Source of the DNA: Parcubacteria group bacterium
Lineage (GTDB): Bacteria; Patescibacteriota; Minisyncoccia; UBA6257; UBA11618
Direction of reading: 5' to 3'
Length of the DNA: 64,000 nucleotides
NCBI GenBank assembly: GCA_943357895.1
Contig: CALRGO010000001.1
Coordinates: forward strand, 140,042-204,041
Part shown: one piece after another, positions 24,925 through 31,933 of the stretch
Numbering within the stretch: position 1 is the first letter of the stretch
Layout: every line of letters starts with the position of its first letter
Translations under genes and position numbers: made by a program
Notes under the pieces: model-generated
Database searches by the model: none
Seen by the model: only the letters and a program-made list of their open reading frames with translations
Told to the model about the DNA's origin: nothing

Positions 24925-25923
24925 GTGATTATCAGCCGCACCCCTTTCAGAATTTCTTTTTTCGGCGGCGGAACCGATTATCCGGCGTGGTATAAGAATT
25001 ACGGCGTAGGCGCCGTTTTATCCGTCACTATCGATAAATATTGCTATTTAAGCTGCCGCCGTCTACCGCCGTTTTTCGACCATAAGAGCAAGATTATCTG
25101 GTCTAAAATAGAGCTCGTTAAAAACGTGGATGAAATCGAACACCCTGCCGTAAAAGAGGTTCTTAAGCATTTAGGCATGCATGAAGATGGTATGGAAATA
25201 CATTATAATGCGGATTTGCCCGCGCGTTCGGGTTTGGGGTCGAGCTCTGCCTTTACCGTAGGGCTTTTGAATGCGCTTTATACGCTTAATGGCACAGCGC
25301 CAGACAAGCGCCGTCTTGCGCTTGAGGCTTTGCACGTGGAGCAGGAGTGTATCGGCGAGAGCGTTGGTTCGCAGGATCAGGTCGCTGCCGCATTCGGCGG
25401 CTTGAATGTGATTACGTTTGGCGGCCCCGACCATATCGCCGTCGTTCCGCTCGCAGTCACGGAGGCGCGCGCCCGCGAGCTTGAAGGGCATTGCATGCTG
25501 TTTTTTACCGGCTTGTCGCGCAACGCGGCAGAAATCGCCGCGGTGCAGATAAAAAATACGCCTAATAAACAAGTGGAGCTTATGAAGATGCACGCGATGG
25601 TTGGGCAGGCAGCGGATATAGTAACAGGTGGACATGACATACGTGAATTCGGTTCTTTACTTCACGAGTCGTGGCAATTAAAGAGGGGGCTTACGAACGT
25701 TATTAGTAACGATCATATAGATGCTTCGTATGCTAAGGCACGTCATGCGGGCGCTCTTGGTGGCAAGCTTTTAGGCGCTGGTGGCGGCGGGTTTATCTTG
25801 GTTTTTGCCGAGCCCGCAAAGCATGCGGAAATCCGCAAGGCGATGACGGGGCTTTTGGAAATCCCGTTCCGCTTCGAGCGCTCCGGTAGTCAGATAGTCT
25901 ACCGCGGGTACCACGAAGCCTAA
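24925..25923 (+). CDS. GHMP sugar kinase, HddA-like (D-glycero-alpha-D-manno-heptose 7-phosphate kinase family).
   Basis: RISFFGGGTDYP N-terminus, GHMP motif PARSGLGSSSA, and C-terminal GAGGGGF. Confidence 0.7.
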   Translation: MIISRTPFRISFFGGGTDYPAWYKNYGVGAVLSVTIDKYCYLSCRRLPPFFDHKSKIIWSKIELVKNVDEIEHPAVKEVLKHLGMHEDGMEIHYNADLPARSGLGSSSAFTVGLLNALYTLNGTAPDKRRLALEALHVEQECIGESVGSQDQVAAAFGGLNVITFGGPDHIAVVPLAVTEARARELEGHCMLFFTGLSRNAAEIAAVQIKNTPNKQVELMKMHAMVGQAADIVTGGHDIREFGSLLHESWQLKRGLTNVISNDHIDASYAKARHAGALGGKLLGAGGGGFILVFAEPAKHAEIRKAMTGLLEIPFRFERSGSQIVYRGYHEA

Positions 25924-25930
25924 ATCTTTT

Positions 25931-26896
25931 ATGCCGAAAATTTCCGTTATATCCGCTTCGTTTAATACCGGCGCTTTCTTCCGCGACACGATCGAGTCCG
26001 TTGCGCGGCAGTCGTCGCGCGATTATGAGCACATAGTCGTCGACGGTGCCTCTACGGACGGTACGGTAGATGAGCTTAAGCGGCATCCGGAGATCCGCTG
26101 GGTTTCGGAGCCGGATAGCGGTTTTCCTGAGGCGTTTAAGAAGGGTGTTGCGATGGCACGCGGCGAATATATTATCCAGTGCAGTATTTCGGATGGTTTT
26201 CTTGATCCTCAATGGTTTGCCCGTTGTATTGCTGTTTTAGATAACGATCCGACAATCTCAGTCGTATGGGGCTTACCGCAGTCAATGTCAGAAGACGGTG
26301 TTTTAGGAAAAATTTCGTATGAGCGATTTTTGTCTTCGCCACCCCCTACGAAAGAAAAATTTCTATACGAATGGCTTTTTAATTGTTTTTGGTTCCCCGA
26401 AGGCAATTTTTGCGTACGTAAGTCTGTTTTTGAAAAATGTTTCCCGTCTATCGTGCAAGATCGCGGCGGTGATCAGGATTTATGGTTGGAATTCAATAAT
26501 ATCTTTCATCGGAATGGGTATCTTTCTGCTTTTATTCCGGTGGTGGCGAATTATGGCAGAGCGCACGCGGGTGCGCGCAGTAACGAAGAAGCGCAAAGTG
26601 GTATTGCTGAGGTGCGGCTTGCACGATACCGCGCGCAGATTGCCGCATATCGCCACGAACTTGCAATGGGTTCCGTGGCGCATCGGTTCCGCGCCGGCAA
26701 CGGATCGTTTTTACAGTTGCCTTTTTCGCGCGCGAAGCTTATTCTCCTCTACGTTAATCCGCGGTACGCGTTTACGTTGTTATACGGCTCCTTGCGGTTG
26801 CGGTTTAAGAATTTTTTAAAGCATCCTGTAGTTCTCCGCGTAATGCCGGCATTCCTTCGCCGAAAAATCGCCGCACGATTGCGCATGGCAGTATGA
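25931..26896 (+). CDS. Family 2 glycosyltransferase.
   Basis: ISVISASFNTGAFFRDTIESVARQS..EHIVVDGASTDGT; GT2 DxD-type. Confidence 0.8.
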   Translation: MPKISVISASFNTGAFFRDTIESVARQSSRDYEHIVVDGASTDGTVDELKRHPEIRWVSEPDSGFPEAFKKGVAMARGEYIIQCSISDGFLDPQWFARCIAVLDNDPTISVVWGLPQSMSEDGVLGKISYERFLSSPPPTKEKFLYEWLFNCFWFPEGNFCVRKSVFEKCFPSIVQDRGGDQDLWLEFNNIFHRNGYLSAFIPVVANYGRAHAGARSNEEAQSGIAEVRLARYRAQIAAYRHELAMGSVAHRFRAGNGSFLQLPFSRAKLILLYVNPRYAFTLLYGSLRLRFKNFLKHPVVLRVMPAFLRRKIAARLRMAV

Positions 26897-27591
26897 ACAT
26901 GAAAATGAACGAAGTTATTATTTTATGCGGCGGGGCGGGCACGCGCCTTGCCTCTGTCGTGCCCAATAAGCAAAAAGCACTTGCCGAAGTGCGCGGTGTT
27001 CCCGTGCTCGACATGATAATAAGCGGTCTTATCCAAAACGGTTTTAAGCGCATCGTGCTTGCTACTGGCGTGCGTGGCGATCAAGTGCGCGCGCACGTGG
27101 CGGATATAGCCGTTCCTACGGATTGTGAAATAGTGGTATCCGAAGAAAAAGAGCCCCTCGGCACGGGCGGAGCAATACGTAGCGCTCTATCATATATTCA
27201 CGGCGAGCATTTTTTGGCAATCAACGGTGATGCGTTTTTCGGCGGTATTAATTTTAATGAGGCACTTGAGTATCATAGGGGAAAAAATGCCGGCGTAACG
27301 CTCGTTGCGGTTGCGCCGCGTACCGAAGCTGATTATGGTAGGGTGGATATTGCTACAGACGGGCGTGCCGGCTTTCGCGAAAAGGCAGGTGCAGGGAGTC
27401 TTATGAGCGCTGGCGCGTATTGGATGAATAGGAGGCTTATCGCCGAATTACCCGAAGGGCCGTTATCAGCAGAAAATGATTTCTTTCCGCGCCTCGCGGC
27501 AGAAGGTCGCTTATATGGATACCGAAGCGCGGGGTACGTTACGGATATTGGTACGCCGGAGCGGTATCGTACTGCTAACGGAGAGGTATGA
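26893..27591 (+). CDS. Sugar-1-phosphate nucleotidyltransferase (HddC/ManC-like guanylyltransferase family).
   Basis: VIILCGGAGTRL..PKAL..GTGGA; about 230 aa. Confidence 0.8.
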   Translation: MNMKMNEVIILCGGAGTRLASVVPNKQKALAEVRGVPVLDMIISGLIQNGFKRIVLATGVRGDQVRAHVADIAVPTDCEIVVSEEKEPLGTGGAIRSALSYIHGEHFLAINGDAFFGGINFNEALEYHRGKNAGVTLVAVAPRTEADYGRVDIATDGRAGFREKAGAGSLMSAGAYWMNRRLIAELPEGPLSAENDFFPRLAAEGRLYGYRSAGYVTDIGTPERYRTANGEV

Positions 27592-31059: not shown

Positions 31060-31061
31060 CC

Positions 31062-31514
31062 ATGAAACAAAAAGCGTTATTTTTAGACAGAGATGGAGTG
31101 ATTAATGAATCAGCGCCGGCGGGGGACTATATTGTTTCGCGTAATCAATTTCGCCTGCGTCCGGAAATTATACCTCTTATCCGTTTTGCGCATGCTACGG
31201 GCTATTTGATCGTGGTTGTTACGAACCAACGCGGAGTTAGTTTAGGATTGATGTCTGAAAAGGATTTAGATGACGTGCATGCATATATGCGTGAATTACT
31301 GAGGGCGGAAGATGCTGATGTCGATGCCGTATATTCTTGTATGCATGGATATGAAGATACGTGTGAATGTCGTAAGCCGAAAGCAGGGATGCTCCTACAG
31401 GCGGCGCGCGACTTAGATATAGATATAAGCGAGTCTGTTATGGTCGGGGATCGTCAAACTGATATTGATGCCGGCAAGGCCGCCGGATGCAAAGCTACTA
31501 TACTATGGAAATAG
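31062..31514 (+). CDS. gmhB: D,D-heptose 1,7-bisphosphate phosphatase (HAD-IIIA family).
   Basis: LFLDRDGVIN, VVTNQ, CxC..RKPKAGM, and GDRxTD motifs. Confidence 0.8.
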   Translation: MKQKALFLDRDGVINESAPAGDYIVSRNQFRLRPEIIPLIRFAHATGYLIVVVTNQRGVSLGLMSEKDLDDVHAYMRELLRAEDADVDAVYSCMHGYEDTCECRKPKAGMLLQAARDLDIDISESVMVGDRQTDIDAGKAAGCKATILWK

Positions 31515-31933
31515 GATTTTTCGCTGGCTCGTTTGATTTATGTCATACGGGGCATGTCCTAGGCTTCAAGGAGGCGCGGGAGAATTGCGATAAGCTTATA
31601 ATTGGCTTGCAGGTGGATCCGAGTGTTGATAGGAAAGAAAAAAATAAGCCAATTATGTCCGTTGAAGAACGGCAGATAATCTTAAGTGGTATACGGTATA
31701 TAGATGAGATTAAGAAGTATAGTACCGAGGCCGATTTAGTGCGGATGGTGCGGGAATTAAAACCAGCCGTCTATTTTCTCGGAGAGGATTGGAGAAATAA
31801 GGAATCTTTAGTGAAAAAAGCGTGTAAGGAGATGGGAATACGTATTCATTATCTTGTGCGGAATCATACATATTCGTCATCGGGCTTGCGACAGAAAATA
31901 TATTTAAGTGAAAGTGAGAGAAAGGGCAGATAA
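31505..31933 (+). CDS. Cytidylyltransferase-like nucleotidyltransferase (TagD / RfaE-II-like), second copy.
   Basis: GSFDLCHTGH with ..IRYIDEI..FLGEDW.. resembles glycerol-3-phosphate cytidylyltransferase. Confidence 0.65.
   Translation: MEIGFFAGSFDLCHTGHVLGFKEARENCDKLIIGLQVDPSVDRKEKNKPIMSVEERQIILSGIRYIDEIKKYSTEADLVRMVRELKPAVYFLGEDWRNKESLVKKACKEMGIRIHYLVRNHTYSSSGLRQKIYLSESERKGR

Follow-up and report, generated by a model that had tools for sequence, protein, structure and literature searches.

Two putative operons for nucleotide-activated heptose-type sugars in a surface-glycan island of a Parcubacteria group bacterium

Nucleotide-activated heptoses are building blocks of lipopolysaccharide (LPS) cores, capsules, and S-layer glycans, and they activate ALPK1, an innate immune receptor of mammals, as agonists. 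To our knowledge, only two routes of heptose activation are established: a PfkB kinase with HldC, which gives ADP-beta-heptose, and a GHMP kinase with HddC, which gives GDP-alpha-heptose. Here we analyzed two gene groups, each with a GHMP kinase (K1 and K2), in a stretch of 64,000 nucleotides (nt) from a Parcubacteria group bacterium (GenBank assembly GCA_943357895.1, contig CALRGO010000001.1, positions 140,042 to 204,041 of the forward strand). This whole stretch is called the window below, and coordinates refer to it. It matches a 253-kb metagenomic contig (ENA ERZ27280257 k141_875121), and both its gene content and the names given to homologues suggest a Patescibacteria/CPR (Candidate Phyla Radiation) organism. 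Pfam scans, which took in essentially all open reading frames (ORFs) of the window of at least 120 amino acids (aa), outlined a glycan-biosynthesis island from about 5065 to 36818, nearly all of whose genes encode sugar-modifying enzymes, glycosyltransferases, flippases, or a polymerase/ligase. Two tight groups of plus-strand genes stand out in it: group A (19649-28313), with intergenic gaps of -4 to +54 nt, and group B (29178-31933), with gaps of +4, +2, and -28 nt. A low-molecular-weight phosphatase gene and a minus-strand ORF of 85-103 aa lie between them. Upstream of group A and divergent from it are the gene for CTPl1, the first of two cytidylyltransferase-fold proteins (CTPl1 and CTPl2), an epimerase-type gene, and a second NUDIX gene. 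The genes are listed below in their order on the DNA; designations such as L174 refer to comparison loci.

19043-19627, minus strand: CTPl1, cytidylyltransferase-fold protein resembling HldC and RfaE domain II, 194-aa ORF (Pfam CTP_transf_like)
19649-21190, plus strand: B12-binding radical S-adenosylmethionine (SAM) enzyme, 513 aa, opening the K1 operon, group A (Pfam B12-binding and Radical_SAM)
21245-21820, plus strand: NUDIX hydrolase, 191 aa (Pfam NUDIX; weak NudE-like match; same position in L174)
21851-23047, plus strand: class I/II (aspartate-type) aminotransferase, called at 21932-23047 in assemblies (Pfam Aminotran_1_2, 2e-62)
23073-24917, plus strand: three-domain thiamine-diphosphate carboligase, YerE/JanthE-like, 614 aa (Pfam TPP_enzyme_N, _M, and _C)
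24925-25923, plus strand: K1, predicted anomeric sugar kinase (GHMP) from a separate clade related to HddA, 332 aa (GHMP_kinases_N and _C; HddA model)
25931-26896, plus strand: family-2 glycosyltransferase (GT2) of the K1 operon (Pfam Glycos_transf_2; same position in L174 and L011)
26893-27591, plus strand: predicted sugar-1-phosphate nucleotidyltransferase of the NTP_transferase fold, partner of K1 (Pfam and NCBIfam matches; 68% identity to the K1-linked transferase of L174)
27588-28313, plus strand: SAM-dependent methyltransferase, closing the K1 operon (Pfam Methyltransf_11, _23, and others; 4-nt overlap with the upstream gene)
29178-30065, plus strand: GT2 opening the K2 operon, group B, called at 29235-30065 in assemblies (Glycos_transf_2, 6e-27; upstream of K2 in L174, L175, and L005)
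30070-31059, plus strand: K2, predicted HddA-type heptose-7-phosphate kinase, 329 aa (GHMP domains, HddA model, WcbL residues)
31062-31514, plus strand: GmhB-like HAD-IIIA phosphatase, short form, 150 aa (DRDGVIN and CxH...CxC-RKP motifs)
31487-31933, plus strand: CTPl2, small cytidylyltransferase-fold enzyme, overlapping GmhB by 28 nt and filling the slot of an HddC-like NTP_transferase in relatives

We determined the family of the two kinases from domains, curated models, solved structures, and catalytic residues. K1, which begins with a GTG codon and has the N-terminus MIISRTPFRISFFGGGTDYP, and K2 each carry the domains GHMP_kinases_N and GHMP_kinases_C, and the top NCBIfam model for both is HddA (NF049969; E of 3e-40 for K1 and 7e-47 for K2). 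The closest solved structures were WcbL 4usk, 3k85, and 4n3o, at E values of 1e-33 to 1e-41, against 1e-12 to 1e-16 for fucokinase (Fkp) structures and still weaker matches for galactokinase. In WcbL, mutagenesis showed R13, D22, the S118-120 loop, Q162, and D163 to be essential, and galactokinases have a Leu at the position of Q162, a difference tied to the room needed for the extra carbon of heptose (PMC4691232). The aligned counterparts are R9, D18, S106-108, Q150, and D151 in K1 and R9, D18, A102, S103, S104, Q147, and D148 in K2. Among 135 aligned kinases, R13, D22, S119, Q162, and D163 (WcbL numbering) were invariant and S120 was present in at least 97%, while S118 was variable; in K1, K2, and both their clades, the six positions other than S118 were fully conserved. 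The start of K2 was set at 30070 and not at the listed ORF start, 29914, as 329-aa homologues align from the Met at 30070; some assemblies give the full 329 aa and others 317 aa from an internal Met (30106), and with the shorter call the N-terminal PLRISF segment containing the catalytic Arg9 is lost. These results support the placing of both proteins in the HddA/WcbL heptokinase family, as judged by homology, and not in the galactokinase or fucokinase family. An earlier note on this DNA, made from the letters alone, had described them as two HddA-like GHMP kinases, and that description held, also when the kinases were set against GalK and fucokinase.

The same note had called the kinase duplicated, a description that needs qualifying. 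K1 and K2 are only 38% identical, and in a neighbor-joining tree of the 135 kinases with 70 bootstraps they fell into different clades. K2 and its close relatives (70 of 70 bootstraps) nest among kinases linked to GmhA or GmhB, and the K1 clade forms a bipartition of its own, likewise in all 70 bootstraps. Within the K1 clade the median identity is 58% across phyla, as against 49% at most to any other kinase of the set. The clade also has a signature by the sugar-binding Asp, GGGTDYPxW in place of the GGGSDLPxF of the other kinases (changes Y19 and W22), together with an LPPFF insertion. The separate clades and the separate conserved gene neighborhoods support the view that K1 and K2 are functionally distinct kinases rather than simple duplicates, in agreement with the note's suggestion that the two have different substrates.

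The surroundings of K2 are close to those of a known heptose cassette. Homologues of K2 at about 45% identity sit in NTP_transferase-kinase-SIS_2-HAD cassettes, and a search with a K2 profile gave, among the matches listed, 35 kinase loci flanked by 3 kb or more, of which 27 have GmhA within 3 kb and 19 have GmhB. The order GT2-K2-HAD-NTP_transferase recurs in L174 (K2 88% identical), L175 (70%), and L005 (57%). In all three, an opposite-strand flippase and an epimerase downstream of the cassette match the window, and Bac_transf, glutaredoxin, and thioredoxin reductase genes then follow as in the window where the relatives' contigs reach that far. In the window, CTPl2 occupies the slot held by the HddC-type NTP_transferase in these three relatives, and a fourth, L176, has the same overlapping GmhB-CTPl2 pair. 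GmhB, which the earlier note had named correctly, carries both the catalytic and the zinc-loop motifs (DRDGVIN and SCMH...TCECRKP). It scores just short of two GmhB cut-offs (NF006506, 150.7 versus 178 bits; TIGR00213, 127 versus 149.6) and clears the TIGR01656 domain cut-off (153 versus 84). Its 150-aa form is kept in L174 and L176; the E. coli GmhB is some 30-40 aa longer. GmhB and a transferase adjoin K2, and GmhA is absent at the locus.

The GDP-heptose pathway (GmhA, HddA/WcbL, GmhB/WcbN, and HddC/WcbM) is known from the Aneurinibacillus S-layer glycan, Campylobacter and Burkholderia capsules, and Yersinia O-antigen. The window resembles it in having a GHMP anomeric kinase with the WcbL residues, a GmhB directly downstream, an HddC-type transferase next to them in close relatives, and a setting in a glycan island with GT2s, flippases, and an initiating transferase. 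It differs from that pathway in the lack of a local GmhA, the cytidylyltransferase-fold enzyme in the HddC slot, the short GmhB, the sub-equivalog scores, and the second, divergent kinase.

The NTP_transferase of the window (26893-27591) had been taken for an HddC-like guanylyltransferase that, with the two kinases and GmhB, would complete one pathway to GDP-D-glycero-alpha-D-manno-heptose. The fold is indeed that of an NTP_transferase, but the protein reached 88.6 bits on the HddC model (NF049965; cut-off, 300) and 121 bits on a mannose-1-phosphate guanylyltransferase model, both far below the cut-offs. In L174 each kinase has an NTP_transferase of its own, and the two transferases share only 27-29% identity. 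The protein of the window shares 68% identity with the transferase linked to K1 in L174 and only 24-28% with those that follow K2-GmhB in the relatives; because of this orthology we assigned it to the K1 operon. A single four-gene pathway is therefore not what the gene arrangement gives, the NTP_transferase going with K1 and the K2-GmhB pair being followed by CTPl2.

We then examined the neighborhoods of K1-type kinases, whose conserved module, a thiamine enzyme and a B12-radical SAM enzyme beside K1, the earlier note had overlooked. Among the matches listed, such kinases occur in more than 10 phyla, their hosts including Omnitrophota, Elusimicrobia, Planctomycetes, Nitrospira, Chloroflexi, Saccharibacteria, Parcubacteria, deltaproteobacteria, a cyanobacterium, the cultured Geomonas edaphica (L074), and a Methanoperedens archaeon. 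The following shares refer to genes within 10 kb of the kinase in 39 GTDB species-representative loci from these matches, which varied in length and were flanked by 9 kb or more on either side.

Thiamine-dependent enzyme: 90% of loci
NTP_transferase: 79% of loci
B12-radical SAM enzyme: 72% of loci
Thiamine enzyme, NTP_transferase, and B12-radical SAM enzyme together: 59% of loci
GmhA: 31% of loci
GmhB: 26% of loci

At equivalent positions the thiamine enzyme takes three forms, namely, small split E1-like, split transketolase-like (in about half of the K1 loci), and acetolactate-synthase-type. An aminotransferase after K1-NTP_transferase was found in 23% of the K1-type loci. GmhA lay within 10 kb of the K1-type kinase in 8 of 10 lineages expected to lack LPS (CPR, Chloroflexota, and the archaeon) versus 4 of 33 diderm ones (Fisher p = 1.2e-4, a value that is indicative only, as the loci share ancestry and the division by LPS was made from record titles and general knowledge). 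Such an enrichment is expected if the K1 module needs the product of GmhA and borrows the housekeeping gene wherever an LPS-heptose pathway exists. The GmhB-CTPl2 pair of L176 has just one kinase nearby, which is of the K1 type (59% identical to K1 and 37% to K2). The GmhA link in LPS-less lineages and the arrangement of L176 suggest that K1 may still use a heptose. In the literature we found nothing relevant on a module of kinase, radical SAM enzyme, transketolase, and transferase or on heptose in combination with a cobalamin radical SAM enzyme. In two Desulfobacteraceae loci (L071, 4140-5621; L077, 7493-8935), an HldE-like protein (480-493 aa) and GmhA are encoded directly upstream of the NTP_transferase, the K1-type kinase, and transketolase-like genes, so that LPS-type and K1-type heptose genes are physically joined.

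The thiamine enzyme of the window, a three-domain protein of the acetolactate synthase type encoded between the aminotransferase and K1 in the glycan operon, has JanthE (8rph) as its nearest solved relative (E of 7e-99; 335 bits, versus 290 bits for acetolactate synthase II). JanthE is a YerE-like enzyme (PMC12188165), and YerE puts the C-4 acetyl branch of yersiniose onto a nucleotide-linked keto-sugar (PMC4753412). Several short-chain dehydrogenase/dehydratase genes, whose products are possible suppliers of a keto-sugar, are present nearby in the window, a feature shared with the acyl-branched sugar pathways. The same two-carbon branching is carried out in Gram-positive antibiotic sugars by E1-like pairs such as AviB1/AviB2. 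When compared with YerE, JanthE, ErwE, and the E1-like enzymes of avilamycin and paulomycin, the enzyme of the window is nearest JanthE, and L174 has subunits resembling pyruvate dehydrogenase (PDH) E1 alpha and beta. The known pathways differ in that they branch CDP- or TDP-linked deoxyhexoses derived from glucose 1-phosphate, whereas the window pairs a heptokinase-type GHMP kinase with a B12-radical SAM enzyme. L174 is a genus-level relative (K1 79% and K2 88% identical), in which the PDH-E1-like subunits, a cupin, a DJ-1 protein, and a HAD phosphatase (706-4453 of L174) replace the aminotransferase and the YerE-like enzyme of window positions 21851-24917. To judge from the gene content, these inner differences look like serotype-style cassette swapping in a conserved frame.

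The other enzymes of the K1 operon gave less specific matches. The radical SAM enzyme matched only weakly to BchE, HpnJ, and P-/C-methyltransferase models, and its matches to solved structures (AprD4 and TokK, E about 1e-5) were weak and uninformative; in other phyla, full-length homologues (31-43% identity) are encoded immediately upstream of K1-type kinases. C-methylation as its role is a guess. Small genomes of the CPR type are usually unable to make cobalamin, and a cobalamin-dependent enzyme in such a genome would imply an external supply of the cofactor. The aminotransferase scored 308 bits on an archaeal aspartate aminotransferase model, below its cut-off; it could supply a keto-acid donor or aminate the branch.

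Our preferred reading of the region, held with about even confidence, is that two co-directional operons in the surface-glycan island would each make their own nucleotide-activated heptose-type sugar, in place of a single incomplete pathway with one kinase too many. Operon B (GT2, K2, GmhB, and CTPl2) would be a near-standard heptose activation cassette, in which CTPl2 most likely attaches the nucleotide to heptose 1-phosphate. A translationally coupled enzyme, CTPl2 would have displaced the HddC-type transferase of the relatives, and its TagD-type Arg motif suggests CTP as the nucleotide donor. Operon A, taken with the divergent CTPl1, would be the local version of the module conserved over many phyla. 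Its K1-type kinase and own transferase would activate a heptose-like sugar. To this sugar the thiamine enzyme, with a keto-sugar as its acceptor, would then probably add a carbon branch, and the radical SAM enzyme a methyl group. GmhA would be encoded elsewhere in the genome and its substrate made by enzymes of the window. All the substrates, anomers, and nucleotides named here, as well as the order of steps in operon A, are deduced from sequence. A bolder version, toward which we lean less than away from it, holds that K1 kinases mark a widespread pathway to a C-branched, C-methylated higher sugar, which in the window stands beside a cassette for a TagD-type-activated, CDP-linked (possibly alpha) heptose.

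Several findings weigh against the two-operon reading, and they concern the scores, the CTPl proteins, and the isomerase. Both kinases fell far short of the 600-bit equivalog cut-off of the HddA model (K1, 138.7; K2, 160.5), and all the family-specific curated cut-offs were missed by the heptose-pathway proteins, whose names therefore apply at the level of the family and not of the equivalog. The roles given to the radical SAM enzyme, the NUDIX protein, the aminotransferase, and CTPl1 are guesses.

The nature of the K1 substrate admits another explanation. The lincosamide pathway makes a GDP-octose with the enzymes LmbR, LmbN, LmbP, LmbK, and LmbO, and K1 might resemble LmbP and phosphorylate a sugar with a lengthened chain: from a sugar phosphate, the thiamine enzyme would build a higher ketose phosphate (C8 or a 1-deoxy-heptulose), to be followed by isomerization, phosphorylation at C1 by K1, dephosphorylation, and nucleotide activation. 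The likeness lies in a C-C bond-forming enzyme, an HddA-like kinase, a HAD phosphatase, and an NTP_transferase, which together yield an activated higher sugar. The split transketolase-like genes of about half of the K1 loci, of a type whose products normally transfer C2 units to aldose phosphates, would fit this route, as would the clade-specific Y19 and W22 by the sugar-binding Asp and the LPPFF insertion. Lincomycin biosynthesis differs in using a transaldolase and not a thiamine enzyme, in having no radical SAM enzyme, and in belonging to an actinomycete secondary-metabolite cluster. Moreover, the thiamine enzyme of the window belongs with YerE and JanthE, which attach acyl groups to ketones; Q162, tied in WcbL to the extra carbon of heptose, is invariant; and the link to GmhA in LPS-less lineages fits an ordinary heptose 7-phosphate. 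We therefore regard the chain-extended substrate as distinctly unlikely and keep a heptose as the preferred substrate of K1.

The earlier note had placed a TagD-like cytidylyltransferase beside each half of the pathway. Of the two proteins, CTPl2 does lie within the 24925-31933 interval that it covered, and CTPl1 lies outside it, on the minus strand (19043-19627). Both have the CTP_transf_like fold and the HxGH motif, and both scored best on rfaE_dom_II, the model of the second domain of RfaE. CTPl1 scored 91 bits on that model versus 29.4 on TagD, and among full-length solved chains HldC (5x9q) was its nearest, with 54 bits versus 25 for TagD. Its C-terminal FEKISTS, of the F type, is one residue short of the motif (F/L)XXGXSTT of the ADP-heptose nucleotidyltransferases HldC and RfaE domain II, termed HENases (Tang et al. 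2024, as summarized in PMC11461863 and PMC11573728). Orthologues of CTPl1 (186-207 bits) adjoin radical SAM and NUDIX genes in L013 and L017; one possibility is that CTPl1 adds a nucleotide handle that is later removed by the NUDIX enzyme. CTPl2 is ambiguous. It scored 82 bits on rfaE_dom_II versus 61.1 on TagD, the order being reversed among solved structures (TagD, 47 bits; HldC, 29 bits), and its C-terminal RNHTYSSS resembles the RTEGISTT of TagD, unlike (F/L)XXGXSTT. Both proteins missed the cut-offs of rfaE_dom_II (TIGR02199, 181.5 bits), of which each reached about half, and of TagD (TIGR01518, 165.4 bits). The TagD label can thus be kept in part for CTPl2, for which TagD is the nearest relative in the PDB, and has to be given up for CTPl1, which is HldC-like.

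An HldC-type assignment carries a difficulty of its own. HldC-type enzymes take the beta anomer from PfkB kinases, whereas HddA-type kinases give the alpha anomer (PMC4691232). Compared with the ADP-heptose pathway, the locus has no PfkB-type (HldA) kinase, and the partner would be a GHMP-type enzyme, which gives the alpha anomer in known systems. Nothing relevant was found in the literature on HddA combined with HldC.

The position of CTPl2 nonetheless speaks for a role in heptose activation. As CTPl2 fills the HddC slot and the NTP_transferase of the window is the orthologue of the K1-linked one, CTPl2 may have taken over nucleotidyl transfer for the product of K2 and GmhB, a proposal that we put at roughly even chances. 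Homologues of CTPl2 (100-120 bits, the best among the kinase-retrieved loci) occur in L145 and L171, in operons without another nucleotidyltransferase and in the order CTPl, (methyltransferase), epimerase, family-1 glycosyltransferase, GHMP kinase, GmhA. The viral contigs L255 and L258 have the same arrangement, with a CTPl2 homologue, a GHMP kinase, and GmhA. The operons of L171 (7652-12413) and L145 (7049-11568) are compact and have no GmhB, and that of L171 is followed by a gene for a T4 RNase H-like 5'-3' exonuclease, which suggests that the L171 operon may be a heptose cassette carried by a phage, with a GHMP kinase at its core.

CTPl2 is also open to the reading, unlikely in our view but of some weight, that a single pathway to GDP-D-glycero-alpha-D-manno-heptose operates here, with the second kinase acting on some other sugar phosphate and the small cytidylyltransferase or cytidylyltransferases making CDP-glycerol or a CDP-alcohol for phosphodiester decoration. 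CTPl2 has the size and fold of TagD, its closest full-length solved relative, together with HxGH and the C-terminal RxxxxS(S/T)(S/T) motif; public pipelines label its homologues glycerol-3-phosphate cytidylyltransferase; and there is one GmhB for two kinases. A homologue of CTPl2 with 50% identity, in the Kaiserbacteria locus L177, lies beside an ABC-2 exporter and not beside heptose genes. The score of CTPl2 on the TagD model, on the other hand, is 61 bits against a cut-off of 165, and the gene overlaps GmhB in a kinase-GmhB operon, exactly where three relatives have an HddC-like sugar-1-phosphate transferase. The Pfam scans of the window showed no member of the CDP-glycerol- or CDP-alcohol-using transferase families Glyphos_transf and LicD, CTPl1 is clearly nearer HldC than TagD, and the NTP_transferase that the single pathway would need is orthologous to K1-linked and not to K2/GmhB-linked transferases. 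On balance, we retain CTPl2 as the candidate nucleotidyltransferase of operon B.

CTPl2-like proteins (41-52% identical) are abundant in viruses, with at least 582 matching stretches in viral contigs and further matches in 100 deposited phage genomes. In 78 of the 80 viral loci (L179-L258) the homologue lies away from heptose genes, which counts with the points against a heptose role. Phage records (e.g., PP763253.1 and KF301602.1) annotate these proteins inconsistently, as TagD, as cytidylyltransferase, or as [quoted passage not shown] With these counts and annotations, the viral contigs were rejected as a guide to the function of CTPl2.

The missing isomerase is the other difficulty. The earlier note had seen no GmhA in the 64 kb, and this was corroborated: no SIS or GmhA protein appeared in the Pfam scans, and a profile of 71 cassette-linked GmhA sequences, run with filters off against the six-frame translation of the window, gave a best E of 0.32, on RpiB. 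As a positive control, the same profile gave 27 matches in the comparison loci. GmhA was likewise absent from the 10 kb downstream of the window (housekeeping genes only), which makes 74 kb in total, and from the 8-10 kb around the cassette in L005, L174, L175, and L176. The lack of GmhA in the 74 kb and near the cassette in these four relatives weighs against a heptose substrate in this lineage. In other CPR genomes (L008, L017, L030, and L081), GmhA adjoins the cassette. We expect gmhA elsewhere in the genome. Its substrate, sedoheptulose 7-phosphate, can be made, since the window encodes the following set:

43080-47221, plus strand: GAPDH, RpiB (44060-44551; 164.9 bits versus a cut-off of 135), an RPE-like protein, and a split transketolase

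RpiB was considered as a substitute for GmhA and rejected, as it is a bona fide RpiB and nothing favors such a role.

The absence of an isomerase would be explained if the kinases here acted not on heptose but on mannose 6-phosphate (or free mannose) and, with GmhB and the transferase, produced GDP-mannose without the need for phosphomannomutase, as a substrate for the GDP-mannose 4,6-dehydratase encoded at 7294-8307. Mannose was bound in the sugar pocket of WcbL (PMC4691232). The dehydratase clears the gmd equivalog cut-off (510.8 versus 415), no ManB or ManC was seen in the scans of the window, and the NTP_transferase scored highest on the mannose-1-phosphate guanylyltransferase model. Both kinases have nevertheless kept the heptose-associated Gln (Q162), and GmhA is linked to the K2 clade and to the K1 loci of LPS-less lineages. 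Heptose 4,6-dehydratases, which are close homologues of Gmd, may also pass the gmd model. We consider the mannose route very unlikely, and heptose remains our preferred substrate for both operons.

Two further schemes were considered for operon A and set aside. A phosphonate logic resembling that of Fom1/Fom3 (cytidylyltransferase, B12-radical SAM enzyme, hydrolase, and thiamine decarboxylase) was rejected, as there is no phosphoenolpyruvate mutase in the window and the thiamine enzyme has the three domains of a carboligase. A logic resembling the methylerythritol phosphate pathway (DXS-like, IspD-like, and IspE-like enzymes) was not adopted, as K1 keeps the heptokinase sugar-binding residues.

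If the preferred reading is right, the pairing of a GHMP kinase and a cytidylyltransferase-fold enzyme would join the two established ones as a third way to activate heptose, possibly leading to a new nucleotide-heptose. The K1 module is tightly conserved (kinases about 58% identical over phyla) and very widespread and has no described product; it would tie B12-radical-SAM chemistry and thiamine-dependent branching to heptose metabolism, and its presence in at least one cultured organism means that the product can be found. A small CPR genome would here be investing in two parallel, elaborate surface-sugar pathways. The gene families are all familiar, and no new fold or mechanism is shown; it is their combinations that are not described in the literature found. 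What had been noted as a duplicated kinase is thereby recast as two testable pathway hypotheses, one of which is relevant to many phyla.

Upstream of the two operons, positions 7294-17334 encode the GDP-mannose 4,6-dehydratase, two DegT aminotransferases, a C-methyltransferase, an RmlC-like epimerase, and two Glyco_trans_1_2 transferases, together with a 319-aa ORF (13607-14566) that has no Pfam match. This set looks like a route to a GDP-linked amino-deoxy, C-methylated sugar, whose substrate might be GDP-heptose instead of GDP-mannose. Just downstream of the glycan island, a 938-aa protein with lamin-tail domains (39399-42215) is encoded beside a PaaX_M-domain protein (38149-38811). Farther on, eight consecutive large plus-strand ORFs (47244-56895; 288-541 aa) had no Pfam match at E of 0.001 or below; four of them fall within the related contig L259, where no family is recorded for them either. 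The G+C content is 0.43 in the first 2 kb of the window versus 0.57 in the next 2 kb. Over the 64 kb the cumulative GC skew climbs almost monotonically, and the plus strand carries most of the genes, which is consistent with a window that lies in a single replichore and contains neither origin nor terminus.

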